Shown: positions 11,655 to 53,900, numbered from the whole stretch's first letter. The stretch: 62,925 nt of DNA, filler included, from Elsinoe ampelina (GCA_010093995.1; 7 parts of 5 records of this genome joined end to end with filler, not necessarily neighbours in it); one strand, 5' to 3'. A program made the numbers and translations. The notes: generated by a model from the letters alone, not told the origin.

Positions 11655-12255
11655 TATTAAAGCCTTATATTAAAGCTACATATGTCGTAATATAGAGAAC
11701 GCCTATCTAACCGAATAGTCCGTTAGTAGTAGAACTAATTACTATTAAGTTTAAGGCATAAGTACTACGTAAGATAAGTAGGTACGTTACGTAAGTAAGA
11801 CTAGCCGCTACTAAGTGCCGCTCTAATACTAGGCCCTTATAATTGTCTTCTCCTCTAAGAGAGCTATCCTTAGCTCTCGACTAGAAGTGTATAACGTATA
11901 GCGCCTTCTAGAGGTAATATAGGCTTAAGGTAGTTAAGGCATTTATACAAAAACCTAGTATATATCTCGTATACTATTTAGTAATAGTAATCCTAGGGAT
12001 CTAGTTCCTATAGAGGCGTTTATCTAGTTGCTATAGCGCTAAAGCTAATTAGTAGCGACAATATTACTTTTCTTAGAATTTCTAGTAGTATTATAGGAGA
12101 TATACGCCTTACGCTAGTAGCTATAACAAAGATATAGTACACTAGAGGTTAGTCTATATAACTTTATTATTCCTTCTTATATTCTTCTTTTCTACCTAAA
12201 ATATATCTATATTTTATTAACTCTTTACTATATAAGCGTACTACCTATAACTATT

Positions 12256-13051
12256 ATATTATTTAACTCTAGCTCTCCTATAGCTAATACTTATAGCGTA
12301 AGGTCTACTAGCGCCTAGGGAGCTATTACTACTAGCGCTAACTCTACGACTCTCTTACTTCCTGAAGAGAAGGCTAATACCTATACTAGGTACGCTAATA
12401 GCGTTGCCGAGGGTAAGCTAATAGTGCTCTTATAAGGGACATAACTAATTTATAGTAGGTCGTATCTATACTAGAGGTAACTTTAGTATCTTCTTCTATC
12501 GTAAGTATAAACACTACGCCTATAGTAAGTATATATATAAGCTACTTCTATCTATCCTACGTAATATATATATTAACGCCTTTAATGTAGTTACTAAGCT
12601 TAAGGCCTCTAACTAGGCTAGTATTACTATAGCTAAGAAGTATATATACGCTATAGCCTATAAGAATATTCCTAAGGTTAAGAAGTTTAAGACTATACTT
12701 AAGGTATACTATACTAATAAGAATAAGATCGTTAGCGAGGTCTCGACTCCTTATATAGGGCCCGTAGGTAGCTCGCTTAGTAGTGTTACGCTTAAGTATA
12801 AGAAGGTTAAGAAGCTATAGAAGATTAGGCGTAGCCTTTATAGCTTAATTACTATTAGTAAGGAGGTAAGTTAGACTATACTCTATATACGTTATAAACA
12901 TAGCTAATAGGTTTAGATAGTATATAACTCTAGTAGTTCTACTACTAAAATCAATTATATTATAGCTACTAGATAGCTTATAGCCCCTATAGTACTTATA
13001 GGGGAGAATCTTAGTATAGAGGTAAACGAGGAGAATAGTAAGAATAAGTAG
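12256..13051 (+). pseudogene. RIP-mutated two-intron gene antisense to Gypsy B; inferred six-Cys zinc-cluster-like protein with helical middle and acidic tail
   Basis: Introns 12413-12455 (GTAAGC..CTAAT..TAG) and 12866-12916 (GTAAGT..GCTAAT..TAG) join one frame. TAT/TAC codons spaced C-x2-C-x10-C-x12-C-x2-C-x6-C if read as RIPed TGT/TGC. Ends ~GEDLGVEADEEDGEDE* (de-RIPed). Start approximate. Confidence 0.6.
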
Positions 13052-14623
13052 GCGTATATAAGCTAGGTGTATATCTCTAGCGCTATACCTATAATAAGGC
13101 CTTACGTAGAGTATAATAGAGTATAGAGTTTAGGTTAATACCTATAATAGTAGCGTAAGTATAGTGCTTTATTAAAATGTATTTCCCTAGGTAAGGAGTC
13201 TACTCTTTGCCCTATTTATATGTTTATATAATCTGTCTACTTATATGCTCTATAATCTATATCTTTAGCAACCTTTCTTAGCTACTCTTAGCTATAACTC
13301 GTATATAGCGATTAGCTCTCTCGTATTTATATAATTCTCTTTAGGTTCCTAGCTATTAAACTTAATAGGCTAGTCCTTCTACTTTACTAAGTAGAATACC
13401 TTACTCTTTATAGTTCTCCTATCTAGGATTTTCTCTACTATCTACTTATCTACTTTATTAGTAAGAGATATACTCTCTTCTAGCTCCTTACTAGCTCTAT
13501 CTATCTATAGTTTAAGAAGAGATATATAAAAGACATTATAGATACAATACTAACTCGGTAAAGCTAGGTAATACACCTATAATCTAATTGTGTTAAGTAT
13601 ATAAAATAGGCTAAGGAATTATAGTTCTATCTTCTTCTTTAGTATAGGTAGCTATAAGTTCTTAGCCGAGAGTAGTACTAAGTTACCTATACTATATACT
13701 CTTAGTATATACTTCCTATTATAGTACTTAGCCTAGTAGGTAGAAGTCTCTTTCTATTGCTCTACTAGCTTTATATATGTATCTCGTAAGTGTTATACTA
13801 ACTCTACTACTACTAGTACTCTTCTCTCTAAAGTCTTGTCCTAAGACTTAATAGCTATTACCTCTAACTCTAGATAGTAGCTATATATTATTTAGAAGAG
13901 GCTTATACGTAGCGTAGTATAAATGCTATTATTGCTTATAAATTCTACTTATAATAGATATTCGGCCTAGTTGTTCTATAGCTCTATATAGTAGCACCTT
14001 AGGTACTATTCTAACGTCTAGTTTTGCTACTTAGTTTAACTATCTATCTATAGGTAAAAGGCTATACTAAGTCTACGCTTTATATACGTTTCGTAACAGA
14101 ATTTACTCTAGAACTAGCTAGTAAAGACCGATTCTTAATTACTTACTATCCCCCTTAGGACACTATAATAGCAAATAATATAGTTACGTAGGATCTCTAC
14201 TAGCTCTATAGACGTATACTTCTTAGTAGTAGAGACATATAGTAATATCTTAGTATAATAGTCTATAATTACTAGTACTATATTATAGACGCTACTACCT
14301 TACTTACTTAGTAGTAGGTTAGTAATAAAATCTATTATAATTTCTTACTATAGGTAGTCTAGTATTAGTAGTACACGTAGCTCGCTATAGAGGCAATAGT
14401 AGCGCGCCTTATATTTCTAGTATACTTAGTATAACTATACGTAGTTATTAATGTCTTTCCTTATAGTTATCTAGAAGTACTTCTACGAGAGAAGTTTAAG
14501 TGTCTTATTCTTACTAAAGTAACTAGCCTATTTACTATTATAGTATATACGACGCCTTAAGTGTACTATTATTCGGAATAACTAGTAATTCTTTATAGAA
14601 GAGAAGATTATCTTATATATTCT

Positions 14624-17600
14624 TATTATAAACTAGTAGGATAGCTAAAGTGTAGAGACGTTAGAACTAATTAAACTACTAAGGTTATTACGTAACTCGG
14701 TCTAACGTTTACCTAGTTCTCTATTTTCTCTAGTAGCTCTACCTCTAAAACTATAAAGCGTATAGGTTACTAGTAGATATATACTCTATACTACTCCCGA
14801 CTCTCGCTATAGAGTATATAGAGTATATAGAGAATGTAATAAAGAATATATATATATAGGAATAGTCTTTACCTTATATAAGTACTATAGTTAACCTCGT
14901 CTAGATAATAAATACTAGTATTACTAAGGCTAGCCTTTATAATACTATCTAATTATACTTTATTATCTATAAGATATACCTTCTCTAACTCTTACCTTAG
15001 TACTATACTACTATAGAAGTAGAACTACCTCGTTCTTAGCTTAGCTTAGACTACTAGTATAAGCTATATTTAGATAGTTCGTAACATTTTAACTACCCTT
15101 ACTATAGTATAGTACGCTATAAGGTTAATAAGTAACTCTTGCTCTAAGTTACTATTAGTATCTTTAATTACTAGTAAGCTAGAAAAGCTTACTATTAATA
15201 ATATATCTATTACTAGTTTAACCTCGGGTAAATATAGAAGGTCTCTTAGTATAGAAAAAGAATAGAGTAAGCCTAAGCTAGAAGTAGAACTCTTCTATAG
15301 GGACTACGCTTACTTAAGGCACTTCCTTATTTAACTTAAAGCCTTCTTTACCCTAGAAGGAGATAAGTACGCTAACGACGTAGTAAAGGTCCTCTATACT
15401 AGGATATACCTTAAAGGCGCTACCTTCGAGTAGTTTAAGCCTTATATAAGTAGCTACCTAGATAGATAACTAGGCCTAAATATAAAGGCTATCTTTATGA
15501 GCTTTAGCATCTTCTAGGCAAAGATTAAGTAAGTCTTTAATATATCTAATAAGGAATATATTACTACGATAAAGATCTAATAACTATAATAATATAGGTC
15601 TATAGCCTAGTACTATTCCTAGTTCTAATAACTTATAATATACCTAGACTAGAATAATAGTGCTAAACATTTAGTATTCTACTAAGGACTAAGCGACTTA
15701 GTTAAAGACTAAATAATACCTAAGCTACCTAATAGCCTCTAGAAGCTAGTAGATACTATAATTACTATTAATAATAGACTTTATAAACGACATATAGAGC
15801 GTCGTAGAGGATATAAGGTAAATACTAGATATATGTGTTCCTTCTAGAACTATAGAGACCCTATAGAACTTAACGCTATATACGAAGGTTACCTCTTATA
15901 GGTATAAGGCTAAGGCTATAGAGGAAAGTTCCTTAGTAGAAAAGTAAGAGAGAAGTATAGATAAGATAATCTATATTTTAAGTATAAAAGACCTAGGTAT
16001 TAAGCTAGGGACTACTAATAAGAGGCGCTAGCTAATAGATTATATATAATAGTTACTAGGCTAGTAGAGAAAAAGGCTAATACTACTATAGAAGACCTAA
16101 CAACCTTTAGTATAGGTAAGGAAATATAGAAGAAGTCTATAACAACTTAAGAGGTAAGAGAATCCTCTCTAGATATTATACTTAATATCTCTATAACTAA
16201 TAGTAAATAATAAAGCTAATACGCGACGCTATTATAGATAGTATATTATAATAACTCTTGTTATATTTACTTATTAGATAAGTAGAGATCTAGTTAGTTC
16301 CTACATAAGCTATCTAAGTATAGGTAACTAACGAAATAGCTAGACTAGGAACCTAACCTAGAAGAGCTCTCTATAATTAGTAGTAATAGTAACTAACTTT
16401 AGAGGGTAGTTAGCAACAATTACTAATATACAATTATTAAGACAAAGTATTAGGACGTAAGTACTATATAATAATATAGTAGTCTTACTTTTAGCCCTTA
16501 TAGCGAACTATAAGAAAAGGCATATTATATGTCGCTCTAGAAATATACAAGTCTAGATTATAAATAGTACTATACTATCTACTTATATAATGTACTTAGA
16601 GAAGATACTATTAGTCTTAAATACACTATAGACTTCTTAGTAATCGAAATAGGTAGTACTATCCCTTATAGCTAAGTAAGAGAATATACTTAGTATAGCC
16701 TTACTAATTATAACTATACTAGAGGTAGTAGCGATAAAGAGAAATATAACAAAGAATACACTAAACAACTATAATATAATAACATAGATAAAGACTTATT
16801 TAACAATAACAACAACAATATACTACTACTAGGTAGGCGACTTAAAGTATACCTTATAGAGATATAGAGGAATTATATAATAATATATACCTACTACTAG
16901 AATAGGACATAATAAGACAAATCTATATAACTTACTTTTATCTTTAATACTAATACCTAGCTATACCTAGAGGGAATAGTTATACTAATATAGGTATACG
17001 ACACTACTTAGTATAACTAGTAGAGAATTATTAGACTTTATAGTTACTAAGGAACTTAAGCGCTAGAAGTTTACCTTATTATATTAAATAGCGATAAAAC
17101 ACAACTTACCTAATAGATATAGTACTAATAATAGATACGTATAGAAAGGGATTAGCTACTTATCTAAGGAGCTATAATAACAAAAAACTAGCTAGTTATT
17201 ACCTAATAAGGTAAGACAATAATACTAGCTAAAGCCTTAATATAATAAAGATCTATATATTAAATTACTTTATACTAGAAGTCTAGATATAAGGAAATAA
17301 GGTAAGAGTAATAATAGATTTAGGAGCTAACTATAGCTACGTCTCTATAATAATTGCTAATTAGCTTAAACCTTATTAATATTAGAAGGAGTTACCTTAC
17401 CTACTTACTATAGTAGATAGAACTCTTATAGGGAAGAATAGGAAAGTTACTTAGGAACTATAAAATATTATAGTTTAAATTGAAACATATATAGAAAAAT
17501 AATTAATCGATATAGTTAATATATAGTATAATATAGTACTTAGTATAAACTAGCTTTAATAATATAATCTAGACATAGACTAGATTAAAGAAATATTTAA

Positions 17601-20600
17601 ATTCTCTAAGTATAATTATAGGACATAGGAAGTATAATTAGCTCTATAGATACTAACTATAAGAATAGTATAGGTACGACTAATAGTTAGGGCTATTACT
17701 AGCGTAAGTAATTAAGTACTTCCGCTAGAATATAAAGACTTTAAGGACTTATTTAAAGAAAGAGAAGATATTATAGCCTTACCCTAATATAGACTATAGA
17801 ATTACAAAATACCTTTTAAAGAGGGTAAATCCCTAATATACTATTAAGGTCTTATACTACTATTAAAATAAGAGGAGAATATTCTTAAGAACTATATTGA
17901 TAAGTACTTACTTAAAGGATTTATATAACTATTAAAATTACCTATTATATATAGAGTACTTTTTATACTTAGAAAGGATAGAATATTATAAATATATATT
18001 AATTACTAGAAACTTAATATACTTACTAGGAAGAATTACTATCCTCTACTAAGGATTAATAAACTTTAAGACTAACTACTTAGAGCTAAATAGTTTACTA
18101 TAATCGATATTAAGGACGCTTATTATTAAGTATAAATAAAGGAGAGTAAGAAGTAGAAAACGGCTTTTAGAATATAATAGAGTTTATATAAGTACCTCGT
18201 TATACTCTTTAGGTTAACTAACGCTCCTATAACCTTCTAAGAGTTAATTAATAATACTCTATAAGAATACCTTAATAACTTTATCTTAGTATATTTAGAT
18301 AATATTATTATCTTCTTAAAGATATATAACAAATATATAGGATATATTTATAAAGTACTATAGAAACTAAAAGAGAAAGACTTACTAGTAAAACTCTCTA
18401 AGTATAAGTTCTATAAGTATAAGATACAATTTCTAAGCTATATTATATCTACTAATAGTATTAGACTCGATCTAAAGAAGATTAAGTTAGTAAATAACTA
18501 GCTAGAACCTATAATAGTTAAGGAGGTTTAAGCGCTACTAAAGTTCTTTAACTACTACTATAAGTTTATTAAGAGATTCTCTAAGGTAGCTACGCTAATA
18601 TCTAACCTTACGAAAAAGGAAACTAGCTTTATCTTTAACAAAAAATATAGGTAGGCCTTTAAGGAGCTAAAGCTTAGGCTTATAATAGTACCTATCCTAG
18701 TACTCTTTAACCTAGACTAATAAGTACTACTAGAAATAGATGCCTTAGACTTTATAATAGAAGTATATCTAGTATAGAAGGACGTAGAAGAATAATACTA
18801 CCTAATTATATACTACTTACGAAAAATAACTAGACCTAAACTTAACTATAATATATATAATAAAGAATTACTTACAATTATAGAAGTATTCCGTAAGTAG
18901 AGAGTATACCTAGAAGAAATAACCTTACCTATATAAGTCTATACTAACTATAAGAACCTTCTATATTAGACAATAACTAAGGTTCTTAATAGATAATAGG
19001 TCTAATAGTTAGAAACACTTATAAGCTATAACTTCTAGATCTACTATATTAAGGAATTAGAAAACAAAGAAGTAGACGCTCTTAGCTACTAGCTAGATTA
19101 CTTAAAAAATATAACAATAATAGAGGCCTCTATACTAAAGTAGTAGAATAGCGCTCTAGTCTATAAGTACCCGAAGGTAAAGTAGTTATATAGCCTTACC
19201 TAGGAGCTTACGTAAGAATAGAAAAAAGAAGTTATTTAAATATACTATAATAACCTAATAGTAGAACATAGTAGGATCGATAAGACTATTAAACTTATTA
19301 TATAAAACTACCTCTAGAAAGAACTCTAAAATAATATTAAGACATATATTACTATAAATAATATATACTATAAGTCTAAATACTCTTAATATAAACTATA
19401 TAGTATACTATAACCCTTACTACTACTAGATAAACTATAGTAATTGGTTATAATAGACTTTATAGGACCTCTACTACTATTAGAAGAACCTCTTATAGGT
19501 ATAAAGTATAATAGTATTCTAGTTCTAGTAGATAGGTTTATAAAGTATTACTACTTTATACTATATAAGATAATAGTAACTACTAAGGATATAGCCTTTA
19601 CCTTTCTCTAAATAATTGTTTTATAATATAGAGTACTACGAGACCTAATAACTAATAGGGATAAGCTATTTACGTTACAATTCTAGTAATTATTTATAGA
19701 CCTACTAGGAGTTAAATATAAGCTATTAATCTTCTTTTATCTATAAACGGACAAATAGACTAAATAGGTAAATTAAGTACTAGAGTAGTACCTATAATAC
19801 TACCTAAACTATAAGTAAGACTTATAAGTAATACTATTACTACTCGTAGAGCTTGCTATTAATAATAAAAAATTAGTAAATAGAATTTTACTATTCTATG
19901 TAAACTATAGAATATACCTAGATCTATACTATAATATACTTAGAATTAAACTAATATCTAAGGATGCTAATATACTAGTAGCTAACATTAAGAAACTATA
20001 TAACTAGCTATACTACGATATAGCGTTTATATTATAGAGAATAGTAAGCTTTACTAACTAAAAGAGAATTATAGGACTAATTCTATAGGAGAAAGAGAAA
20101 GTTTACCTCCTTAGTAAAAATATTAAAACGAAATAACTAAGTAAGAAACTTAACTACACTAAACTAGGACCCTTTAAGATCCTAGAAAAGAAAAACAAAA
20201 ACGTATATAAACTAGAACTACCTAGATATATAAGAATCTACCTAGTCTTTTATATATTACTATTAGAGAAAGCACTATAGGACGTAGTACCTAGACCTAT
20301 TAAACTAGATAAAGAAACATAGGAGCTATAGTATAAGATTAAAAGGGTTTTATGTTATAAATCTATAAGGGAAAAGCGTTACTATCTTATCTACTAGAAA
20401 GAATATTAGTATAGTAAGGTAATATAGGAACTAGAGAAACACCTTACCTCGTAAGTAATTCTAGATTACTAAACTAAAAACCTATCCTAAGTAAACCGAC
20501 TAGGTAGGCTAGACGCTACTAATACTAAATAAAAACAAGAATGCCTAAGGAAGACTACTTAGCTAATAGAAGTACTCTAATCGTTACTAAATAGAGAACC

Positions 20601-21644
20601 CTAATCGGAGTTAGGCATAAATAATTACTAATTCTATAGTAGGACAGGATCTACTAATAATAGTATTTCCTCTTACTCTAGAACTTAAATATAGGTCTCC
20701 TCTAGAGAAATTACTTTCTCTACCTTATTCTCTAATTTCTATATCTCTTCGCATAGGTAAAGCTTATCGCCTATAACTCTTTAATAAGCCTCTTTTGCCT
20801 TTTTATAAGCTTCTTTAGCTTCCTTTCTAGTAGCCTTAGCTATAACTAATTCCTTTTATAAACAAATATACTTAGACTAGAGACGCTACTATTTCAATTT
20901 TATTACCTAAATATTATAACCTAAGTAGTTACTTACAACATACTAGCTATAAATACCCGACTAAATATAGACTTTATAGTCTAGCTCTTTTAACTTATAA
21001 CAAGAGTAAGCTTATAGTATACTAGTTCTAAATAGTTTAATAAACTCTAAGAGGTTCTTTCGTATAAATATACTAGATTTACTATGCCTTTAACGACTAG
21101 GAGGTATATTTAGTATATAGCGTAAGAAGATAAGGAAGAATACTTACTTATTAGAATAACTCGATTAAAGGAGAAAAGTAATGTTACGAACTAGTAGGAT
21201 AGCTAGAGTATAGAGATGTTAGGACTAATTAAACTACTAAGGTTATTATATAACCTAGCTCGACATTTACTTAGTTCTCTATCTTCTTTAGTAGCTCTAC
21301 CTCTAAAACTATAGAGTACGTAGGTTACTAGCGGATGTATACTCTATACTACTTCTAACTCTTGCTATGGAGTATATAGAGTATATAAAGAACGTAATAG
21401 AGAACACATATATATAGGAATAGTCCTTACCTTATATAAGTACTATAGTTAACCTCGTCTAGATAGTAAATACTAGTATTACTAAGGCTAGCCTTTATAA
21501 TACTATCTAATTATACTTTATTATCTATAAGATATACCTTCTCTAACTCTTACCTTAGTGCTATACTACTATAGAAGTAGAACTATCTCGTTCTTAGCTT
21601 AGTTTAGACTACTAGCGTAGGCTATGTTTAGATAGTTTATAATA
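14624..21644 (+). mobile_element. Gypsy/chromovirus LTR retrotransposon, family A, complete copy A1 (7021 bp), RIP-inactivated
   Basis: 463-bp LTRs at 14624-15086 and 21182-21644. TSD attct (14619-14623) / gttct (21645-21649). PPT aaaggagaaaag before the 3' LTR. Zn knuckle ~15973-16015, RT VYLD(N/D)II ~18290, RNase H LE.DA.DF ~18730, integrase ~19250-19950, chromodomain ~20330-20470. Confidence 0.95.
20559..21107 (-). pseudogene. RIP-mutated ORF antisense to Gypsy A1; inferred Zn2Cys6-like domain followed by a coiled coil
   Basis: De-RIPed reading MPPSRQ..RKNLLEFI..FG...QACSxCELKELDCKVHIRSGICGQCVxSNxSGCDIRVT..EWQRL...KEAEEAHEKAKEA.. gives C-x2-C-x6-C-x8-C-x2-C-x7-C. Boundaries approximate. 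Confidence 0.62.
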
Positions 21645-24600
21645 GTTCTATAGCGCTCTACTCTTGTCTCTACTACTCTCTACTTGTAAATATAGCTTTA
21701 TAATCTCGAGGTCTTATTCTTATAGTAGCTCTACTACTAATATTAGGTTAGTAGATAGATCTTTAAAGAGATCCTCTCTCGTAGTTACTATAAGTACAAC
21801 TCGCTAGGTCGTTATAAGCCCCTAGGAGTTCTTAGAAGAGAAGTCGCTACTATATAGCGTATAGGCAGCCTAGGCCTATTCTAGGGCAGCCTCGTATATA
21901 GTGTAGATATGTCTAATAAGCGAGGTAGCTTCCTTAACATCGGTAGTTTAGTCCTATATACGAAGCTTATTCTAAAGGGTAGAAAGGAGATATAATACCT
22001 CTTACTCTTCTACTACGTAGTTAGAGTGCCTCGAGGGTATATTAGCTAGGTTCCTTATACCTAGCTAATACTCTATTATAAAGTTAAAAGTAGTAAGGAA
22101 GGTAGCCTAGTAAGCTTATTAGCTATTTAGCTATTTTAGCTTTATAAATCCTTAAAGATTATTATAGTTAGTAAGTACTTAAATTATATACGAGGCACCT
22201 TCGAGATAGTATTACTATTACTTAAATATATATACGATCGCTAATAGCTCTTAGTTATATATCTTATAATTGTACTTAGCTAAGATAAACTTTCTTAACT
22301 AAAAGGTAATTAGGTACTAAGTACTATCGAATAGCTAGGATAGAATCGCCGCTACTATAAACTTTAATATATTACTCTTAATATATAGAGGTAGTATAGG
22401 ATCGTAGTAACGAAGGATAGAGACATACGTAAAGGTGTCTCTAATGTTCTTAAATGTCTACTATTTACTTATGCCCTATATAAAAGAGCTATACTTACGA
22501 CCTTTAACTAAGCCTTTAAGAAGGCTAGAGAGGAGAGTAATAATCTTAGAGTAGTGCTATACGAAGCAATAATAGAAGTTTATAAAGCTAGTAAACTACT
22601 AGACCTTATAATAACTCTTTAGCCTCGGCTAATTCTTAATTATAGTTACTCTACTAGGATCTATTAAGACGCCTACGGTAGAGATAATATAGCTAAGGAA
22701 TTTTACCTCCTTAGTAAAGAATTTACATTTCTTAAGGTTAGTATATAAAGTAAACTTCCATAGCCTCGCTAGAATCTTATAAATATAACATATATAGTTC
22801 TCCCTTAAATTGCTATAGATAAGAATATTATTAAGGTAGACAATATAGATAGTATTAACTAGCTTACCTAGCGCCTTATTAATATACGCTTAGAAGGTAG
22901 CTAGAGCGTTAGTTAATCTAAAAGGCATAACTAAGTACTTAAAATAGCTATAGTATATACGGAATATAGTCTTCTACTTGTTACTACGCTTAATAGGGAT
23001 CCTATAGTAGGCATCCTTTAGATTTAACTTCGAAAACTACTAGGCTTACCTAAGCTAATTAAGTGTCTTACTAATAAGTAGAAGCGAGTAGTAATTCTTA
23101 ATAGTTATCTTATTTAAGCCCCGATAATCTATATATAAGTATAGACTACTATCTTTCTTAGGCACGAATAGAATAGAAGTACCTACCTTACTTATAGAGT
23201 GCCTAATTTACCTATTTAATTAAGTAGTCTCGAGATAGTCCTTAAGTACTTTAAGCTCCTTAACTAAAAGATTATATAAGGGCTAGAATAGAGGCCTTCT
23301 ACCTAGCTCTAGCTTAATTATATACTTGGTGCCTAGTAGGCGTAGTAGATTTGTAATATTCTTATAGACAAAGATGTCGAAGAACTCTATAAACTCTAAT
23401 AGTAGAGCTAGGTCGCCTACGGTGTAAGTATAGTCCTTAGATAGAGTCTATACTATAGTATATACCCTCGGCTCGTTCTTAAGGTCCTTTATAAAGTCTT
23501 CTAGTTTATATAAGCGAACTATATATAAGAAGTAGCTATATAACTAGTTATCTATAGCGCTATCTATAATTATATACTATCTTCTCTACTATAGGTACTC
23601 TAAAATGACTAGAGAGCCTAGTTCTAAGTCTATAGCGTAGAAGAGGCCGATTGTCTCCCTAAGGTCGCTATAGAAGTCTACTAGACATATGCGAAGCTAG
23701 TACACGCCGTAGTAAAATCCGGCTTACTCTATAAAGGAGAAGATACTTAGATACTAAGTATACTTAACTCTTAGCAGATCGTAACGAAGGGTAAATGCCT
23801 AAGACATAAGATTAACTTCTATATAATTGTCTATAAGGAACATATAGTCTTTATGCCTTATAGGTGCTATAATAGCGCTATAATAGAGTAGCAATAGATA
23901 AGCGTTAATTAGAAGGGAAGAAGGGCTTAGTTATACTCTTTAGCTAAGCCCTTAGAGTTTCCTAACTTAGAGTTATTAGACTTATCTATAGTAGTAACCT
24001 TATATACTACCTAAGACTTACTATTCTTCTATAGGTACTTCGACCTATACTCCGGCTTAATATAACTAGTTTTGCTATAACTATAGTACTTAGCGTCTCT
24101 CTTCTACTTGTCGGAGGAACCTCTCTAACTACTAAACTATTTAATAGGTAGGTTAGTAGCTTTACGCTTATAGCAAGCTTAAGAGCTACTACTAGACTAG
24201 TAGTAGTATCCTTCTTAGGGGCTACTATAACTACTATACTTACGTAGGTAGTTACTTTTATCTTCTCGTATAGCGCGCTTACTACTAGTATAGTCTATAG
24301 ACTCGATATATAAGCCTAAAGAGACTAACTTCTAGCGCGTAGCTAGAATAGTATAGTATTTAATAATAGTAGTACGTAGTATAGGCTATAGCTTAGTAAG
24401 GAGATAGTATACCCTCTACTCTTTAGAGTAGAAAGCTAGTTACTCCTTAAGGGTAGTAAGTTCCGAGGTAAAGGCCTAGATAGATTAGCCCTTACGTTGT
24501 TAGGCTCTCTTATATACGAGAGTTACGCGTACCTTACAATTAATAGGGTCGTTAACTACGTCCTATATAAACTAGCGGAATTGCTTCTATATATAGTCTT

Positions 24601-25901
24601 CTAGGCTATCTATGTAGTAGTAGTAATACTATATCTTATCTAGCTTGCCTATAAGAAATATAACTCTATAGAGTACCTTCTACTAGTTAGTAGAATAAGC
24701 CTTAGAGGCTAGAGTAAAGATAACCTTAAGATTCTTTAGGAAGAATCTTATCTCTTTTAGAGTCTTACTCTAGTAGAGATAGAGTTCTCTTAGTCGAGGT
24801 TATCTAGAGAATAGCCTTACGAATAGTCCGCTACTACTATATATACTCTATATACTAGTATTACTTACTATAGGCTTAGTAGAAGTATACGAGCTATAAT
24901 CGAAGCTCCCTTAGTAGTATTCTATATCGCGTATATAGTATATTTACTTAATCTCTTCCTCGAGGCTCTAAGCCTTAAGCTCTAGCTCTAAGTACTTACG
25001 CTTAGTATATAGGTATAGTAGCTACTCCGCGAGAGTCTCTTCTTTCTCTAGGGGAGTCTACTTAATAGAGTCTATTTCTATAACATTAATAATATAAGGC
25101 GCTAGCGCCTTACTAATAGAGTTCTAGTTGTCTATAGAGTCTAATAGATTATAACTATAGGTAGAGTAATTAGAACTATTAAAGCCTTATATTAAAGCTA
25201 TATATGTCGTAATATAGAGAACACCTATCTAACTAAATAGTCCGTTAGTAGTAGAACTAATTACTATTAAGTTTAAGGCGTAAGCGCTATATAAGATAAG
25301 TAGGTATATTACGTAAGTAAGACTAGCCGCTACTAAGTGCCGCTCTAATACTAGGCCCTTACAACTAGCCTATTATTATTAAGAAGATTCTTTCTTAGCT
25401 CTTATATAGGAATCTTCTTAGTTTTAGTATAGGTAATCCTATTACTAATATAGATTATAAACTTTATAACTATATACTAGAGTTTAAGAGGTGCTCTATA
25501 ATTAATAAAGATATATCTTATTCTAAAAATAACTACTTTATTAGTAGCCTTAGATTTACTATTTTAGTATTAAATATTAGATATAGAGATATTCTATCTC
25601 TACCCTTTAAGATAAATAGCTATTACTAGTTTATAGTTCTTAAATTTACCTCCTCTATTAGAGATAAAGATAAATAAAAGCTTATTATAGGCTATTTTAT
25701 TCCTTATATAGATAAGTTTAATTACTACTAGTATATTACTCTTAAGAAAGAGAATAGTAATAAACTTATACTTACTTTTACTATATATTATAAAGAGAAA
25801 GTATTTATAGCTCTTACTTAACTATAGTTTAATAGGACTAATAAGGTCTAGATAGAGNNNNNNNNNNNNNNNNNNNNNNNNNNNNNNNNNNNNNNNNNNN
25901 N

Positions 25902-25913
25902 TTAATTAATTAA
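25902..25913. other. Artificial contig-join linker TTAATTAATTAA inside a 100-nt N spacer (also at 55880-55891, 57269-57280, 58630-58641, 60250-60261, 61867-61878)
   Basis: Identical 12-mer centred in six equal-length N blocks; gives stop codons in all six frames. Confidence 0.95.
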
Positions 25914-28900
25914 NNNNNNNNNNNNNNNNNNNNNNNNNNNNNNNNNNNNNNNNNNNNCTTTTACTAGTTAGAGGTTATATATTAAATAGTATAATAAGGA
26001 AGTTAATATCCTTATTTTATATATATATTAGTAGTTAATTAATATTAACTATAGGATTAAAGGTTAAATATAGTTTACTAATAACTTTAGGTAGTAGTAT
26101 TATAAGGTCTTTACCTTTATAATTAGTAATAATAAGTTACTTCCCTTGTTTATTAATAGGTTAAGGATCTAGTTTAGAATATTAGTATTACTTCTTCTAT
26201 TCTTTAATAGGAGTAGATAATTATTATTTATATCTAGGAATTAAAAGGTAGTTAGATGTTAGTTGTTTAGCTTAAGGTTATTTAGCCTAAGTAGTTTATA
26301 GATTCTTATAACTAAAGGGTAGTTAATTATAGCTATAGCCTTAATTATAATTACTACTAAATATCTACTCTCTCTAAAGCTATAAAGCCTTAGGTTATTA
26401 TACCTATAGGATATATAGCTATTTAATAACTTATATTACCTAGTCTTTATAGACTATGTTTTTATTAAATATTATATAGAGTAATATAATAATCTTTCCC
26501 TTCTAATCTTACTAAGTATAATACTAATAGAGTATCTAGATAAGGTAATTAGTCATTAAGTTATTCTATATACTAATATACTAACTAAGTAGTACTCTAG
26601 CTTAGAATTTATATAATTTAGAAATATATTAGTTATAGATATAGGCTCTATAGCTAAAGTATCTAATATAAGTTAATAAGACTAGCCTATTATTATTAAG
26701 AAGATTCTTTCTTAGCTCTTATATAGGGATCTTNNNNNNNNNNNNNNNNNNNNNNNNNNNNNNNNNNNNNNNNNNNNNNNNNNNNNNNNNNNNNNNNNNN
26801 NNNNNNNNNNNNNNNNNNNNNNNNNNNNNNNNNNNNNNNNNNNNNNNNNNNNNNNNNNNNNNNNNNNNNNNNNNNNNNNNNNNNNNNNNNNNNNNNNNNN
26901 NNNNNNNNNNNNNNNNNNNNNNNNNNNNNNNNNNNNNNNNNNNNNNNNNNNNNNNNNNNNNNNNNNNNNNNNNNNNNNNNNNNNNNNNNNNNNNNNNNNN
27001 NNNNNNNNNNNNNNNNNNNNNNNNNNNNNNNNNNNNNNNNNNNNNNNNNNNNNNNNNNNNNNNNNNNNNNNNNNNNNNNNNNNNNNNNNNNNNNNNNNNN
27101 NNNNNNNNNNNNNNNNNNNNNNNNNNNNNNNNNNNNNNNNNNNNNNNNNNNNNNNNNNNNNNNNNNNNNNNNNNNNNNNNNNNNNNNNNNNNNNNNNNNN
27201 NNNNNNNNNNNNNNNNNNNNNNNNNNNNNNNNNNNNNNNNNNNNNNNNNNNNNNNNNNNNNNNNNNNNNNNNNNNNNNNNNNNNNNNNNNNNNNNNNNNN
27301 NNNNNNNNNNNNNNNNNNNNNNNNNNNNNNNNNNNNNNNNNNNNNNNNNNNNNNNNNNNNNNNNNNNNNNNNNNNNNNNNNNNNNNNNNNNNNNNNNNNN
27401 NNNNNNNNNNNNNNNNNNNNNNNNNNNNNNNNNNNNNNNNNNNNGCTTATAGACTTTAAAGTTCTTAAGCTATTTAACTCTTTTAAAGTGTTTAATAAGG
27501 CTAACTTCCTTTCTATCCTTTATTAAGGATTTACTAACTATAGAGATACTAAGTTCCTCTTTATTCTAAAGATTAAATATAAGAGTATTTAGTAATAATA
27601 GTAAGTATATATAATTATAAAGCTTAATAATTAACTTCTTACCTTTACTATTAGTTAAGGTAAGCCTAACTATACTAACTTCTATATTAAGTAGCTTCTT
27701 TATACTAATAGCTTATTTAAATTTAAGAATACCTTTATATATCTTAATTATTAAGAACTATAACTTATCTTTAATAAAGTACCTTAATACACTAGAGTTA
27801 TAAATTACTCTATTCTTACTATAGGTTAAGAATAATAATATAGACACTACTACTGCCCTATAGACTAGTATAATAATATTAATATTAGTATTAGAGTGTT
27901 TATCTAATTTACTTACCTTAGTAAGTTCTCTAGATTCTTTATTAGCTACTTAACCTTTAACTTTTTTAGTCTTTAACTTGTTACTTTTACCTTTAGCCTT
28001 TATACCTTTATTATTTAACCTATCTTTATTATTTCTTTTACTTTAACTCTTTAGTACTTTCTTAGAGTACTACTTAAAGTAATCTATATTAGAGTAGATA
28101 TAATAAGTATACTAAGTATATTAATCCTTAATATAACTAGCTACTCTATAAATAGGGTTTAGATTAGTTTTTCTATTATATAGGGGCTTCTATATTCTAA
28201 GAGAGCCTATTATCTCTTTAAGACTCTTCTTATAGTTAAGGCTAGATCTTTAGCTCCTTAACTATTTAGTAGTCTCTATTTCTATAATAAACATAGTCTT
28301 AATATAGTATAGAGAGAGCTTAAACTTATCTAGTTTAGTACTAATAGTACTTACTCTTTGCTCTATAGTAATAGTATATTAATAATAGTACTTTATAAAA
28401 TCTTTATAGTACCTTTAGGTATTATAACTTATTATAATTACCTTGTTAAGGTTATAGATAGCTATATATAGCTTATATAAAATAATAAGTTTAAATATAG
28501 CTTTAATAGTGTCTAGAAGTTCCTTTAAAGTCTTCTAAGTTATACTATAGTAAGGTCTAATAGATTTATAAATCCTTATTATAATAATACTATAAGTAAT
28601 TCTATTATTCTTATACTAGGTCTTATTCCTAACCTTATAGACTACCTTAGTGCCTTTACTAGTATCTAGGGCTAGTTCTTTAGACTTTATAACTACTAGT
28701 ATCTAGTTAATGCTATAAATTATATATCTAAGTATATCCTTTTTAAGGAGAGCTATCTTAAGAGTTAATCTCTAAGTATTATAGTTACTTTCTCTCTTAA
28801 GAATCTAAGTCTTAAGTATTTTTGCTAATCTAGATATAATAATAGTAATTAGCTAAAGGCTTTTAATTAATGTAATTAGCTTATTTAAGCTATTTAAGCT

Positions 28901-29055
28901 GTTTAATTAAAGGGTTAATACGGGCTACTATAAGTGTTTATCTTAATATAGCTAGTTTAGAATTTAGTGTTACTAGCTTAGTAATCCTTTTAATAATAAC
29001 ACGCTTAATTTGCTATAGCTTTAAGTGCTTTTGTAGAAGTACTAGGCTTATAACC

Positions 29056-29197
29056 TGTTATAACTAGCAAATCGGATCGAGAGATGTGTATTTTATTTAG
29101 AGAGTTACAATAACCGATTTATCTACTGTGCGTGCGCTGACTCATCAGTACCAGTTCTTCAGTACCAGAGAAGCTGTACCAGCCTTCCATTACAACA
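29056..29197 (-). repeat. 5' LTR of Copia C (142 bp)
   Basis: tgttataac...ttacaaca termini; matches 50960-51101 and 62608-62758. Confidence 0.93.
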
Positions 29198-44553: not shown

Positions 44554-44613
44554 GCAGAAGGTTGCACGTTATAGGTCGGATAGAGAGTAATAGCCTTGTT
44601 TTCGGGAGTCGTG

Positions 44614-44850: not shown

Positions 44851-44941
44851 GTTGAAGGTCTGAAATGAGTATGGCCTGCGGGGCCGTATTGATGGAGGGT
44901 GCCTTTGATGAGACCAAAGGCAGTCCGTTCAGGAAGATGAT

Positions 44942-45064
44942 CTGAGGGAGAAACAATCAGTAAAAATCACTCAAGTAAATGTGACTCTGTGACTTCGCCC
45001 GGAATCGTCGAGATGGCGCAGCAAACGGACGGCCGAGGGGCAGCGTGAATTTTCTTCTACTTAC
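44942..45064 (-). promoter_or_regulatory. Probable 123-nt intron in the ODC 5' leader
   Basis: GTAAGT donor at 45064, branch TACTGAT, pyrimidine tract and CAG acceptor at 44942 (minus strand). Confidence 0.7.
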
Positions 45065-47690: not shown

Positions 47691-49109
47691 ATGTATCGAC
47701 GAAATGATCCGCGCTTCCGGAGGACCCTCAACGAGATCTCACAGACGATCGAGAGCGCGAATGAGACGGCACAAGCTCGGGTCTACGTATTTGGGCAAGA
47801 ATACATCAATCCTTGTTTCTCGGGAGTGCTATCCTGCTTTCGACCATGTATCGAGAACTGTTGCGCTGGGCGAGATCAGCGGGGTAACAAGACTCGAGGG
47901 CGAGGGCGTGCTGAGCTCAACTTTGATTTCTACGACGACTGGGAGGAAGATGAGGCGGACGGACTGCTTGGGTGGGATGATGAGGAGTATGACGGCTTCT
48001 TCTCCGGACCAGGGTCATATGGCGCGACTCAACAGCAGCCTGCGCGACAACGAGCAATGAGTTATGGCACTCGTCGCGATGCGAGGGGTCGCAGAGGCAG
48101 CAATCCTGGTGCTGAAGAGAATCCATCATATTTTGGCTTCCTTGGAAAACTAACAGGTAAGCTTGGACAAGGTAAAGGACTACGATACAAACCTTCCGCG
48201 GCTGGACTTCAGGAACATCCAGGTGCAAGCAAGAAGCAGGCTGAGTCGGAGTCTGAGCCATTGATGACGGACGACAGCGATGTAGATGCAGTTGGCCGAC
48301 GAAAGAGACACGGAAGAAACCGGAGTGGCACGAATGCCAGTCAACAGACAACCAGCTCTTTCAGCTCCAGAGGAGATATCTTTCCCAGCGAAGACGAGGA
48401 TGACGCGGTCATGTTGGATGACGAATTTGCTATGGTGCTAGAAAGGAGAAATACAGGAACGGGAAGTGGTCCAGATGATGGCAGCAGCGGGATCATCAGC
48501 AGCAACAACAGTAAACGACCTCGCCTTGGGTCTAGGAAGTCGACGAGGTCAAGATCAAGTCGCAATACACCCAGGTCGAAGAGATCATCACGAGCTCCTA
48601 GCAGCGATTCACCCCCGCGAGCTGAAATGGTTGATCCGGAACCTGTTATAATACCAACCTTGAATGAATTAAAGCAAGAGGAGGAACAGGCACGCCTAGA
48701 GGAAGAAGCGGCGCTGCACAGGAGACGCTCGGCTGCCCAGAAATTGGCCGAAGAGCGTGGGCTCAGCGCTACCAATTCACCGACAGTCGGTCGACGATGT
48801 CTGTATTATGAAAGCATCACTAACGACTTGCAGTCGATCCGCACACCCACAGCTCGCTCGACACCAGAGAGACAGTCAAGTCACCACCAAGAAGACCTCC
48901 AACGGATGAGCCAGATTGAGAATGCCGTTTCTTCCATTGCCACGATCCGACCACCTACCACCCCTTCCAGAGTCAGCTCTGCCCATGACTTGCAGTCCAG
49001 CAAGGACGAATTTGGTGACTTTCAAGACTCACCTTCTATACGACGAGCACCAGCTGAACAGCCTGTGAGCTCCTCGTTTGAGGCTGCGCGACTACCACGA
49101 TTCTCATGA
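47691..49109 (+). CDS. Hypothetical fungal protein (Cys-rich N-terminal patch, FDFYDDW motif, disordered Ser/Arg-rich body); probable in-frame intron 48786-48833
   Basis: 472-codon ORF with protein-like composition. 48-nt GTCGGT..CACTAAC..CAG segment looks like an intron. Divergent from the methyltransferase gene. Confidence 0.85.
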   Translation: MYRRNDPRFRRTLNEISQTIESANETAQARVYVFGQEYINPCFSGVLSCFRPCIENCCAGRDQRGNKTRGRGRAELNFDFYDDWEEDEADGLLGWDDEEYDGFFSGPGSYGATQQQPARQRAMSYGTRRDARGRRGSNPGAEENPSYFGFLGKLTGKLGQGKGLRYKPSAAGLQEHPGASKKQAESESEPLMTDDSDVDAVGRRKRHGRNRSGTNASQQTTSSFSSRGDIFPSEDEDDAVMLDDEFAMVLERRNTGTGSGPDDGSSGIISSNNSKRPRLGSRKSTRSRSSRNTPRSKRSSRAPSSDSPPRAEMVDPEPVIIPTLNELKQEEEQARLEEEAALHRRRSAAQKLAEERGLSATNSPTVGRRCLYYESITNDLQSIRTPTARSTPERQSSHHQEDLQRMSQIENAVSSIATIRPPTTPSRVSSAHDLQSSKDEFGDFQDSPSIRRAPAEQPVSSSFEAARLPRFS

Positions 49110-49673
49110 TATTACTTGACATCTGAAAGAAAGATACCCAGTCGCATTATCAATTAGCATGGCGTTCAGGAGCACAGGACTGAGCGAATGCAAGACCCAG
49201 TGCGGGCAAGCATGATCAGGAGGAGTGCATGAAGCATCCATCTCTGTATTTATAGAACTTTGGGAAGACGAATGTACGACGTTGTTGAATCATTCAGTGT
49301 AACGATACCAAGAGCGAGGACGTTTCAAACTCATTGTAACTTCGGCGGTGCACGTGAAACTCCCATCTATCACTACATGGCCTACCAATTCTGTTCATAA
49401 CTAAAATACCCATCCCGTTGTGTACCCTTAATTAGCAGCCAACAGCGCGGTATCATATCACAGGTCTGTCGGAGTCATCCCGATCTTTTGATGGCGTGCT
49501 CCGCAACGGTACCGCTTCACAATCCAAGAATTTTTTTTCCTTTCTTCCACACAGTCCACAACCACACCTTGACACCGCCCGTGAGTAAATCGGTAAAATT
49601 TCCACCCTTCCCCAATTCCTTTTCCCCTCATAAATCCCCTTCCCAATTCCCCCTATCCTCGCACAAAACAACA

Positions 49674-50759
49674 ATGTCCCACCTAACCCCCACCTCCTCA
49701 GGCTACTCCACCCTCCTCTCCCCCCCTCTCCCATCCGCCTACACCCCCACCCAACTCCTCCTCTACCTCCAACACATCCACTTCCCCCTCCCGCTCACCT
49801 TCCCCCGCACCCCCTCCACCCTCCTCCTCCTCCACCGCCTCCAAATCACCACCATACCCTACGAAAACCTCTCCCTGCACTACTCCCCCACCCACACCAA
49901 CTCCATCTCCCCCCACGCCCTTTTCGAAAAGTTCATCTCGCCCCCCGCGGCCCCCGGGTCGGCAGAGCAGAGCGCGGGCAGAGGGGGGTACTGCTTCGAG
50001 ACGGCGGTGTTCTGGCTGAACATCCTGCGCGGCTTGGGGTTTCGGGCGTACTCGTCGCAGGCGCGGATTCGGTTGAGGGATGGGCCGGTGCCGAAGGGGG
50101 AGTTTGTGGGGCCGAGGCATGTGGTGACGATTGTGGTGTTTGAGGATGGGGAGCGGTGGAGTAGTGATGTTGGGTTTGGGGGGGATGGGCCGACGGGGGC
50201 GTTGAGGTTGGTGGGGAGGGGAGAGGAGGGGGCTGGGCAGGGGGTTGATGGGGAGGGGGATGAAGGGGCGGTGGTGAATCTGGGCAGACAGGAGGTGAGG
50301 ATTAGTAGGGGGGTGTTTCCGGGGACGGTGGATGGGGGGAGGAATGGGGTTTGGTTTTATGAGTATAGGAATGGGAAAGAGGGGACGTGGGAGAGGTATT
50401 ATGCTTTTGGGGATCAGGAGGCGAGTTTGTGGGAGCTGGAGTGTGCGAATTGGTGGGTGGGGACGCATCCGGATAGTTTTCAGAGGAAGCAGGTCTTGGT
50501 GGTCATGTTCTTGAGAGAGGAGAGGGAAGTGGATGGGGTGGGGGAGGGGAGGGAAGCAGAGTTGGTGCGGGTGGTGGGCAAGGTCATGCTTGTGGATGGG
50601 ATTGTCAAGAGGAATATGGGCGGGAAGACGGAGGTGATCAAGGTGTGCAAGACGGAGGCGGAGAGGGTAGATGCTCTGCGGGAGTATTTCGGAATCACGC
50701 TGACGGACGAAGAGAAGAAAGGCATCCAAGGTTTCAGGACGGAGCTGAAAGAGGCATGA
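49674..50759 (+). CDS. NAT: Arylamine N-acetyltransferase (NAT family), 361 aa, intronless
   Basis: IPYENL, GRGGYCFE (catalytic Cys), HVVTIV (His), DVGFGG (Asp). ATG in acaATG context at 49674. Confidence 0.93.
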   Translation: MSHLTPTSSGYSTLLSPPLPSAYTPTQLLLYLQHIHFPLPLTFPRTPSTLLLLHRLQITTIPYENLSLHYSPTHTNSISPHALFEKFISPPAAPGSAEQSAGRGGYCFETAVFWLNILRGLGFRAYSSQARIRLRDGPVPKGEFVGPRHVVTIVVFEDGERWSSDVGFGGDGPTGALRLVGRGEEGAGQGVDGEGDEGAVVNLGRQEVRISRGVFPGTVDGGRNGVWFYEYRNGKEGTWERYYAFGDQEASLWELECANWWVGTHPDSFQRKQVLVVMFLREEREVDGVGEGREAELVRVVGKVMLVDGIVKRNMGGKTEVIKVCKTEAERVDALREYFGITLTDEEKKGIQGFRTELKEA

Positions 50760-50959
50760 GACCTGTGATCCGGAGTTTGTACGCGTTGTGGTATAGACAT
50801 GCTATAGACGTGAAGCAGATGAGCTCACAGATGCGCATGATTGAGGAAGCAAAGGTACGACTTCCTGCTATATGGTGCAGACCGGAAACAGAAATGATGT
50901 ACGAACCATGATCAAGCATCAAGAACAAGCAGCTCGGTCCGCAGTGTGGTTCTGTCGGT

Positions 50960-53900
50960 TGTTGTAACTAGCAAATTGGATCGAGAGACGTGTGTTTCAT
51001 TCAGAGAGTTACAATAACCGATTTATCTACTGTACGTACGCTGACTTATCAGTACTAGTTCTTTAGTACTAGAGAAGCTATACCAGCCTTCTATTACAAC
51101 ACTCCCCCTCTAGTATAGATTGCTAAAGCTAGAGAACTGTCCTGTTACATGTAAGTAAAGTAATTAGCTTATTACTTTATCTCTTTATAATTACTTATAA
51201 TTGTTAGTGTCAGCTAATCATTAGTAAGAATTCACTATTAGTTTAGCTTATGATTGCTAGCAATAATAGTAACTATTAACAATAGCTAGGCAGCTATTGT
51301 TTATGTAAATAGACTAGCTTATAAGTCTTAATTAAAGAGATATAAGTATCTAACTAGCCTCTTTATAATTTCTCTTTCCTTTATTACACTTATAGTAGTA
51401 GCTTTTTCTTTTATATAACACTTTCACCTTCTTACTATACTACATTAATAATACTTATAACATAAGCGCTATAGTATAGCAACAGCTAGGCATTAGTAGT
51501 ATTACTACTAGTGCTAGTGCTCTAAGTAGTCTACTAGGTAGCGGAGGTAGTAGTAAGAAGAGAAATCCTCTATTAAGGTTACCTAGTACTTCTAATGTTA
51601 ATTATAATACTACTATAAGACTAATTACTCGTCTTAATACTCTTAGTAAGTAGCTATAAAGCATTAATAGCATAAGCTAATATTAATAGCCTAATTAACT
51701 TAGACTTTAACTTAATAGTTAGCCGACATAATCTAGAATACTCTCCTTAGGCTTAGAATAATTAGTTATTATAACTATGCTAACTTATATCCTATCTAAA
51801 GGTCTATAGTAGTCTAGGCCTTTAGTACCTATAGTGTATACCTAGTAGTTACTAATCCTATTCTAGTTAAGAATCTAACTAAGCAAGTTAACCTTACTAG
51901 ATCTACTAACTACTCTACTACTTTAATAGCTTCTAGTGCTACTAGTAGAGTAGTCTACTATAGAACTAATCGCTACACTAAGTGTTAGGGATCTAACCCT
52001 AGCAATAATTAGAGTAAGGGCAGGGGTAGTAAGTTTAGTAAGTGTATTACTTTGCCTAGTTAGCTTAATAAGGCCTACACTTGCTATGCTTATAGCAACT
52101 AATATACTAGATGTTCCTTAGCTAACTATACTCTAACTCTAAGGCCTATTAGCTCTCCTAAACCTATAAGGACCCCGAGTAGCTTAAGGGTCATTACCTA
52201 GCCTATTCTATATAGCCTAATATACCTACTAATAGAGCTTCTAAGGTCTGTCTCTTTTAGTAGTGCTTTGCCTTAGAGGTTCTTACTAAGGGCCTATATA
52301 CTAGGGGCATTATTAGGTGTAGTTAACACCTCGATAACTTATACTAACTCTCGCTACTTTATAGTAGTCCCTATAAACTTTGTAGATTCTACTAACCTAA
52401 CTACTACTAAGGTTCGTAACTTAGCTACTATAGTAATAAACTATATAGTAGAGCTTATAAGGATTATAGCTACTAGCTACCCTAGTTAGCTTTCTCCTAT
52501 TTATGCCTTTATACTAGGCCTAGCACTAATAAGGCATAGTAGGTCTAGATCTAACACTTCTATAAGGTCTACTAGTAGTAATAAGGGAAGGGGTTCTCCT
52601 TCTATAAAGAAGTAATTAGAGGTAGGGGATAGGTAGGAGTTATTAAAGGTAATAATAGTACTAAGTAGTAGATATAGCTTAGGTATAAGTAGCTAGTAAT
52701 AGAGTTATAATAGCTTTTCCTTTCTCTCTTCTTAATGATAAAATAATTTACTTTAAGCTTTAGACAAATAAGATAGCTTAATAAGTAGTAGTAGTATAAA
52801 TAATATACTTAAAATAATAATACATATAAAATCTAAATAAGTATATAGTACAGATATATACTAAGTAATTAGCCTTTGCTAATTAATTAAGGATCTTGTT
52901 AGGAGACTTAGGCTTTATAAGTGTATTAGCTAATTACTAAGTTGTATTAATGTACTTAAGCTTAATTACTCTAAGTTTATACTACTCTCTATAGTAATAA
53001 TTCCTTAAATTAATATACTTAAATCTCCTTAAATTAGTGTAATCTCTTATAAGTTTAATAGCTAACTTGTTATTAATAAAGACTATAGTTAGGCTAAGGT
53101 AAATATTAGTAAGTAGCCTAAGTTTAATAATAAGATTTCTTAACTAATTAATCTCTCTATAGGTCTTAGTAAGGGTAAGGTATTTAGCCTTAGTGCTTAA
53201 CAATATAATAATCTTCTATAGCCTTAACTTCTAAATAACTAGTGTACTAAGTATATAAATAATAGTACTAGATATAGATCTTGTAGTTAATCTATCTCTA
53301 GTAAAGTCTAAGTTAGAGTAGGCCTTAATTGTGTTAACTAATAGTCTATTAGTCTTCTTAAAGGTAAGGCCATTTATAATAGTCCTATTAATATACCTCT
53401 AGATCTGCTTAGCTATAACTATATAAGCTATAGTTAAATTCTAAAGGAACCTAGCTAGGTAATTAGTAGCATAGCTAATATTAGGCCTTATATTGTTAGC
53501 TAGATATTATAATTCACTAATAATCCTATTAAATGTCTTATAGTACTAAGTATTAACTTAGCTATTAGTTGGTTTATAGAGTTAATTAATAGAATGCTTT
53601 ATAGTTCTTACTTAGTGAAGATTATAACCTTTAAGCTTCTCCTTTAAGTAGTGTAATTACTTAATCTTAATTAAGTCCTTAGTTCTATAAAGTTAAATAC
53701 TAAGGAAGAGGTTTAAGTTTATAATCTTCATTAGAAACTTAAGATAAAGATCTTTAACTAGCTTGTCTATATACTTCTACCTAGTAGTAATAATCCTAAA
53801 GTTATTAATATATATAAGAACTATATAATACTTATTAATAAAAAGACAAGTATTACTATAGGATTTATTAGAACTAAGTAATAGAAGTGCCTTAACTATA

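Follow-up and report, generated by a model that had tools for sequence, protein, structure and literature searches.

A RIP-degraded copy of a conserved antisense zinc-cluster-like gene probably lies downstream of pol in a chromovirus of Elsinoe ampelina

The DNA analysed here is a stretch of 62,925 nucleotides from Elsinoe ampelina (GCA_010093995.1), hereafter the window, composed of seven contigs joined by N44-TTAATTAATTAA-N44 spacers and not one molecule. Its AT-rich blocks (GC content 0.13-0.36) lie on both sides of a GC-rich island at 29-51 kb and are nested long terminal repeat (LTR) retrotransposons altered by repeat-induced point mutation (RIP). CpA and TpG together amount to 0.014-0.036 per nucleotide in these blocks versus 0.145 in the island, indicating that the blocks are RIP-saturated. 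As a first-pass annotation had observed, three of the elements, Gypsy A, Gypsy B and Copia C, have extra sequence after pol, which spans about 0.6 kb in Gypsy A, 1.4 kb in Gypsy B and, if the purine run at 51111-51102 is the true polypurine tract (PPT), about 1.7 kb in Copia C; these loci fall on two contigs. The annotation read in each of them a six-Cys gene antisense to gag-pol. For Gypsy A this reading is borne out by relatives and a family profile, whereas the Gypsy B and Copia C regions match neither a profile, nor Pfam, nor the cysteine spacing. The support for Gypsy A comes from un-mutated relatives and is thus evidence beyond that of the annotation.

The antisense reading frame of Gypsy A and its un-mutated relatives

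Gypsy A is a chromovirus with very many RIP-mutated copies in the genome, three of them in the window (Table 1), and its LTRs measure 690 bp by self-BLAST. P0001, an un-mutated polyprotein of 1054 amino acids whose source names it as Elsinoe fawcettii, carries the precomputed Pfam families RVT_1, rve and Chromo and matches the integrase region of Gypsy A with E 4e-125. In tblastn, its residues 1-1030 align to 17410-20499 of the third copy at 54% identity; the match ends there, and the pol stop probably lies near 20578. In the second copy, the LTR is joined straight to mid-integrase sequence (5413-6108) without a counterpart of 19920-21181, a clean 1.26-kb deletion adjoining the LTR that removes the pol 3' end and the entire antisense gene region.

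On the minus strand of the third copy, a frame of 183 codons, as compared to 188-192 in the nearest relatives, contains 19 in-frame TAA or TAG codons and no TGA, and its 3' end overlaps the likely pol stop by about 20 nt. Other genomic copies were read from contigs of two DNA runs, X1 and X2, of a single sample, possibly the one from which the window derives. These contigs cover 20100-21180 in every bin, as they do pol, with 2578 and 1899 pieces. Among the 40 of 197 variant places listed, the change 21105 T>C, which turns the ATA of this copy into ATG, occurs in 37 contigs of X1 (0.82 of the summed depth) and 32 of X2, while 20857 T>C and 20858 A>G, which turn an in-frame TAA into CGA, occur in 27 contigs of X1 (0.84 of the depth) and 15 of X2. 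The span 20559-21107 given by the annotation therefore fits, with an ATG at 21107-21105 in other copies and a length like that of the relatives. Two further sequencing runs, presumed to be RNA, gave no contigs on Gypsy A and are uninformative on expression.

With P0001 as the query, 79 un-mutated chromovirus loci (529,789 nt) were retrieved from metagenomes, of which 42 have enough DNA downstream of pol to be eligible. Most loci with room there contain an ATG-to-stop open reading frame (ORF) opposite pol. In this DNA, all 29 occurrences of the exact six-Cys pattern are antisense to pol, the pol strand having none, and 29 ORFs have the Zn2Cys6 spacing C-x2-C-x6-C-x5-12-C-x2-C-x6-8-C, which occurs in the window only if Tyr is read as Cys. 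Un-RIPed relatives of Gypsy A thus do possess the open antisense frame that the annotation had supposed: in 21 of the 42 eligible loci, a six-Cys ORF lies 212-653 nt beyond the pol match on the opposite strand. In 15 of 17 cases, the ATG is located 30-136 nt from the PPT or LTR, with TGT(T/G)A... directly after the PPT, and the other end mostly overlaps the pol stop by 4-140 nt.

A family profile hidden Markov model (HMM) was built from 26 of the metagenome ORFs. Because these were picked by the six-Cys pattern, the invariance of the cysteines in the family alignment is by construction; the strand, place and openness of the ORFs are independent of that choice. In the mirror frame, the median number of stops is 2.5, and this frame is open for just two of the 26 ORFs. 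Furthermore, pN is smaller than pS in all 15 pairs compared. The three least diverged pairs have dN/dS values of 0.05, 0.09 and 0.21, and another three for which dS is finite give 0.18-0.38. The comparison of un-RIPed relatives suggested by the annotation thus revealed purifying selection. A conserved antisense gene exists in the chromovirus relatives, fixed in place, open in the antisense direction only and under purifying selection.

The family ORFs are uninterrupted by introns, comprise about 110-240 codons and share a layout of a basic N-terminal helix, the six-Cys cluster, a long helix and an acidic aromatic tail. The predicted fold appears to superpose on the core of the Gal4-type cluster. 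The annotation had looked to Pfam Zn_clus and DUF3716 for confirmation, but even intact relatives stay below their thresholds: the Zn_clus cut-off (PF00172, 21 bits) is reached by none of 20, eight of which have sub-threshold scores of 13.5-18.5 bits, and the DUF3716 cut-off (PF12511, 22 bits) likewise by none of 20, with a single sub-threshold hit at 11.6 bits and none in the rest. A search of the ESM Atlas with one intact ORF (L008) returned only unnamed Ascomycota clusters. For eight clusters, public sources give "hypothetical protein", no name, or two spurious automatic names (transglutaminase-like cysteine proteinase; YdcH/DUF465). A scan of viral contigs with another family ORF (L028) found no relative.

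At the same antisense place, four loci (L005 3436-3035, L033 3883-3491, L034 7860-7468 and L061 6878-6651) contain a coiled-coil ORF that lacks the six-Cys cluster. They may represent the gene in a reduced or split form.

The family profile was then run against the whole window, divided into 1521 search windows in six frames. With TAY read as Cys in every one of them, the Gypsy A locus scored 26.7 bits (E 3.9e-7) over HMM positions 5-136, as compared to 7.1 bits for the best unrelated one. In the raw reading it scored 8.5 bits (E 0.16), and it ranked first of the 1521 in both searches. All six Cys columns appear here as TAY codons (first bases 21008, 20999, 20978, 20951, 20942 and 20918, minus strand), each apparently one G>A step short of TGY. 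The cluster region lies 418 nt past the end of the pol match, as against 212-653 nt in the relatives, and both the Gypsy A frame and the relatives' consensus begin with MP. In the codon alignment to L028 and L008, 32 of the 142 aligned codons are identical and 23 more differ by C>T or G>A only. Downstream of the cluster, the Lys/Glu-rich part has a codon log-likelihood of +17.0 for the minus strand against its mirror, and the purine skew flips there. Judging from its sequence, the Gypsy A locus is a RIP-degraded member of the antisense gene family, and this copy is dead, a fossil.

Several results weigh against this identification. The unaltered window reading is not significant, and the raw Gypsy A frame gave negative results against the family in both hhalign and BLASTP, matched no Pfam family in any of the three minus frames and found no homologue in a word-based search. 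Tyr makes up 9.6% and Cys 0.9% of the 61,178 codons of the window, with Tyr at 9.6% in every frame, and the canonical six-Cys spacing with Cys or Tyr occurs at 17 start sites. The six-Cys reading is accordingly not above chance when taken from the window alone, contrary to the annotation. The family ORFs were also selected by a pattern search. One might suppose that they belong to the host or arose by chance next to retrotransposons, and that Gypsy A matches them by accident. We consider this very improbable. The ORF lies between pol and the PPT or LTR; in L011 it is located between both copies of a BLAST-confirmed LTR pair, and in L007 and L039 an LTR-like start follows the PPT. Its strand and distance are constant in 21 loci, with no match on the other strand, and purifying selection is evident in all pairs. 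Moreover, contigs of other copies cover every bin of the region, just as for pol, and the family profile gives at most 7.1 bits at each of the remaining 16 Cys/Tyr pattern sites of the window. We conclude that Gypsy A probably carries a dead copy of a conserved antisense Zn2Cys6-like gene between the pol stop and the PPT.

Table 1. Positions of the Gypsy A features and of the other elements, spacers and gaps in the window
Feature	Position	Strand	Basis or remark
Antisense accessory ORF, Gypsy A copy 3, RIP-inactivated	20559..21107	-	family HMM
Start codon of the antisense ORF	21105..21107	-	ATA here, ATG in most other copies
Six-Cys cluster region	20916..21008	-	TAY codons aligned with TGY Cys codons of relatives (L028, L008); HMM alignment
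In-frame TAA	20856..20858	-	CGA (Arg) in most other copies
Lys/Glu-rich helical part	20649..20855	-	counterpart of the relatives' long helix; HMM to position 136
Gypsy A pol (PR-RT-RNaseH-IN-chromodomain), RIP-mutated	17410..20578	+	tblastn
Polypurine tract, Gypsy A	21167..21178	+	60 nt from the antisense start codon
5' LTR, Gypsy A copy 3	14631..15320	+	self-BLAST; TTACGTAAC at 14688-14696
3' LTR, Gypsy A copy 3, truncated	21182..21642	+	starts TGTTACGAAC; self-BLAST
Gypsy A copy 1	1-4840	-	
Gypsy A copy 2	6108-10710	-	
Gypsy A copy 3	15320-21181	+	
Gypsy B	11643-25364	-	inside another repeat; itself split by Gypsy A copy 3
Gypsy B post-pol region, about 1.4 kb	11843..13264	unassigned	contains the claimed + gene 12256-13051
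Copia C pol	54520-52778	-	pol end between 52870 and 52778
Copia C post-pol region	51112..52777	unassigned	contains the claimed + gene 51462-52696
Spacers	25858-25957, 55836-55935, 57225-57324, 58586-58685, 60206-60305, 61823-61922		
True gaps	26734-27444, 59034-59530		

RIP reversal and the regions downstream of pol in Gypsy B and Copia C

The annotation had reversed RIP by reading TAT/TAC as TGT/TGC. In the alignment of the three Gypsy A copies (1-4840, 6108-10710 and 15317-20156), polymorphic C/T sites number 211 in CpG as compared to 147 in CpA context, and the invariant cytosines include only 13 in CpA and 46 in CpG. CpG is therefore mutated about as hard as CpA, so that Arg CGY and CGA codons turn into Tyr and stop codons, and de-RIP rules based on CpA only are misleading in this genome. 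Accordingly, the two copies of Copia C pair Tyr with Cys twice, with Arg twice and with His once, and in the pol of Gypsy A, most copies in the contigs have CGT in place of a TGT of this copy and CGA in place of a TAA. Given these Tyr-Arg, Tyr-His and TGT-CGT pairs, TAY cannot simply be converted to Cys, even TGY may stem from Arg, and the rule does not hold here as a safe one.

The annotation also relied on retained introns. Such motifs are common: the window contains 46 in 61,186 nt, versus 36.7 +/- 5.8 in Markov simulations. Gypsy A has none, and the argument is not needed there, as the relatives are uninterrupted.

Gypsy B is bounded by 200-bp LTRs (11643-11842 and 25167-25364) that are 92% alike, with a purine tract adjoining 11842. 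Its reverse transcriptase, integrase and chromodomain are readable, pol ends near 13265, and it is only 24-36% identical to any of the 79 loci. The claimed plus-strand frame shares its codon triplets with a pol-strand frame, which is the more open of the two: the longest stop-free runs are 94 and 85 codons on the pol strand versus 67, 63 and 55 in the plus frame. The statement that the sequence is coherent only opposite gag-pol thus fails within the window.

The post-pol region of Gypsy B might instead code on the pol strand, either prolonging pol at its C-terminus or forming a third sense ORF, with the plus-strand reading as its mirror. The frame is in phase with pol, and its two long runs are the second and fourth longest stop-free ones of the RIPed part. 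However, nine stops fall in the approximately 55 codons between the chromodomain and the open stretch, the purine skew flips to the plus strand at 12600-13200, the codon log-likelihood is slightly contrary, and open mirror frames are to be expected in RIPed DNA. Coding on the pol strand is therefore unlikely. As the pol-strand frame is no less open, and antisense stop-free runs of up to 79 codons occur even inside pol, an open antisense frame in RIPed DNA says little.

In Copia C, the PPT-like run AGAGGGGGAG adjoins an LTR-like start at 51101, but there is another purine run at 52733-52714, which makes the LTR boundary ambiguous. A second, partial copy of the element is located on a contig of its own. 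A repeat of at least 836 bp beginning TGTTGTAATAG occurs at 50960-51111, 28377-29197 and 61923-62758; two of these copies border the GC-rich island and a small contig. As it follows directly after the PPT-like run, this repeat may be the Copia C LTR.

The annotation held that these two elements bear their own, unrelated antisense six-Cys genes, convergent in two superfamilies. The long post-pol regions are consistent with this idea, as are the few stops in the claimed frames (four in the 232 codons of the Gypsy B exons, nine in 281 codons of Copia C) and the codon log-likelihoods, which favour antisense by +13.9 in Gypsy B and +20.2 in Copia C, on a yardstick of 10.7 +/- 5.9 per 70 codons in known sense blocks. 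There are three intron-like motifs on the plus strand of Gypsy B, the first of which restores the frame, and three in Copia C, whose first copy keeps Cys codons at two sites where the second has Tyr. Such a gene is also common, since roughly every second chromovirus relative carries one. Stop density, codon log-likelihood, purine skew and intron-like motifs all lean antisense, and none of them is significant for Gypsy B or Copia C.

On the other hand, even when Tyr is taken for Cys, the canonical spacing is absent from both claimed frames, and the family HMM matched neither region in any frame, whether raw or with TAY read as Cys. Pfam found no families in the three plus frames of 12256-13060 in Gypsy B or in six frames of Copia C. 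A word-based homologue search with the plus-strand reading of Gypsy B gave no match, and an exhaustive HMMER search with a two-copy profile of the Copia C plus frame gave none in 1.84 billion representatives. None of the 79 metagenome loci is Copia-like, and a scan of viral contigs with Copia C pol found no relative. Owing to RIP damage, the profile failures of both regions are weak negatives. Together with the more open mirror frame of Gypsy B and the derivation of TAY, even TGY, from CGY, these results make antisense six-Cys genes in Gypsy B and Copia C improbable in our judgment. Convergence across two superfamilies is accordingly unsupported.

In RIP-saturated DNA, open antisense frames and "restored" cysteines are thus no evidence alone, and un-mutated metagenome relatives can settle gene claims that RIP has obscured.

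Outside the retrotransposons, the genes of the GC-rich island encode a kinase, an ornithine decarboxylase, a UBX protein, a lysine methyltransferase and an N-acetyltransferase. A small contig has, adjacent to RIPed repeats, an unmutated plus-strand reading at 60306-60700 (GC content about 0.42) that resembles, by eye only, a pogo/Tc1-like DDE transposase (LLVLDGHSSH..LQPLDV); Pfam gave no matches for the ORF at 60640-61125 that overlaps it.

A candidate LTR palindrome and a putative element-encoded regulator

The LTRs of the relatives contain a palindrome. Within the first 250 nt, CACGTG, mostly in the form of TCACGTGA, is found 39-111 nt inside 10 of 14 LTRs of ORF-bearing elements (L002, L006, L008, L009, L010, L012, L019, L032, L039 and L045), and it is found in two of nine whole LTRs of elements without the canonical ORF. 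The background is 86 occurrences in the 529,789 nt. Its RIPed form, TTACGTAAC, is kept in three of the four Gypsy A LTRs of the window (among the sites, 14688-14696 and 21246-21254); in the 3' LTR of the third copy, TTATATAAC at 21246-21254 corresponds to the relatives' TCACGTGAC. As kinship among the loci is uncorrected, the association is only a lead. The palindrome might be bound by a host bHLH factor or, alternatively, by the protein that the element itself encodes. CGG/CCG pairs are not enriched in the LTRs.

These features can be combined into a model. The gene of the relatives is a single ORF that starts 30-136 nt from the PPT or 3' LTR and extends up to, or into, the 3' end of pol. Because there is little room before the LTR, its promoter would lie in or next to the U3 of the 3' LTR and read inwards. 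The cluster may bind two zinc ions and DNA in the manner of Gal4-type domains. The long helix is predicted to self-pair, and the protein might act as a dimer. In the predicted L008 homodimer, residues 65-125 pair in antiparallel fashion, residue i with about 187-i. Speculatively, the protein may regulate transcription of the element that encodes it by acting on the LTR, perhaps at TCACGTGA. That a broad ascomycete chromovirus clade encodes a miniature Gal4-like factor from U3, which binds its own LTR, perhaps at this palindrome, and switches on transcription or caps copy number, is a tentative proposal, possible but on balance doubtful.

The layout of the protein, purifying selection, the fixed place by the LTR and the candidate palindrome make an element-encoded regulator a testable hypothesis. 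If it is true, a retrotransposon would possess a private sequence-specific regulator, able to rewire host genes where its solo LTRs land.

Comparison with known antisense genes and zinc-cluster factors

Antisense extra ORFs of plants were described decades ago and those of Botrytis in 2011, without a function being assigned. One such family now gains a putative architecture, namely a DNA-binding head resembling a zinc cluster, followed by a pairing helix and an acidic tail. In the literature searched, which did not cover the original brtn paper, no fungal retrotransposon was described as carrying an antisense ORF of the zinc-cluster type, nor did we find a published account of the zinc-cluster-like, dimerising and acid-tailed design or of how widely it occurs among ascomycete chromoviruses.

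Gal4-type Zn2Cys6 factors (PF00172; PDB 1d66, 6o19, 2er8 and 1cld) share with the family the canonical six-Cys spacing and, according to the predicted models, a cluster core that appears superposable, a helical pairing region directly after it and an acidic tail. Unlike them, the family falls below the Pfam cut-off in 20 of 20 cases, comprises proteins of only 110-240 amino acids, lacks the fungal middle homology region, is encoded by retrotransposons and has no CGG-pair enrichment in its LTRs. The predicted dimer appears antiparallel, in contrast to the parallel coiled coil of Gal4.

The original description of brtn is reportedly that of Zhao et al. 2011, Virology 417:248. This antisense gene of the Boty-like Ty3/gypsy retrotransposons of Botrytis cinerea (PMC7264820, PMC8365987, PMC4227169, PMC5987419) appears to be the closest precedent. 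Like the present family, it is an extra gene that runs antisense in a fungal chromodomain Gypsy element, after pol and before the 3' LTR (PMC7264820); the citing passages mention no zinc-cluster nature, and the likeness drawn here is one of placement. In plants, antisense ORFs between pol and the 3' LTR are described for Grande, RIRE2, Retand and PvRetro13, with the same place and orientation, conservation within families and no assigned function (PMC7264820). These belong to non-chromovirus lineages, and the passages on them in that source mention no zinc-cluster architecture. Antisense genes placed in this way are therefore already known as a kind, according to these passages, from Boty and plants (PMC7264820, PMC8365987).

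For the mechanism, a parallel may be drawn with an animal retrovirus. In that system, the element expresses a protein from the strand opposite to its main genes. HBZ of HTLV-1 is an antisense-encoded bZIP factor transcribed from the 3' LTR. It differs from the chromovirus family in its DNA-binding fold and its animal retroviral host element, and it has no homology to the family, so that the analogy concerns mechanism only; in that respect, the family may likewise provide a small dimerising regulator of the DNA-binding type, encoded opposite gag-pol and read from the 3' LTR.

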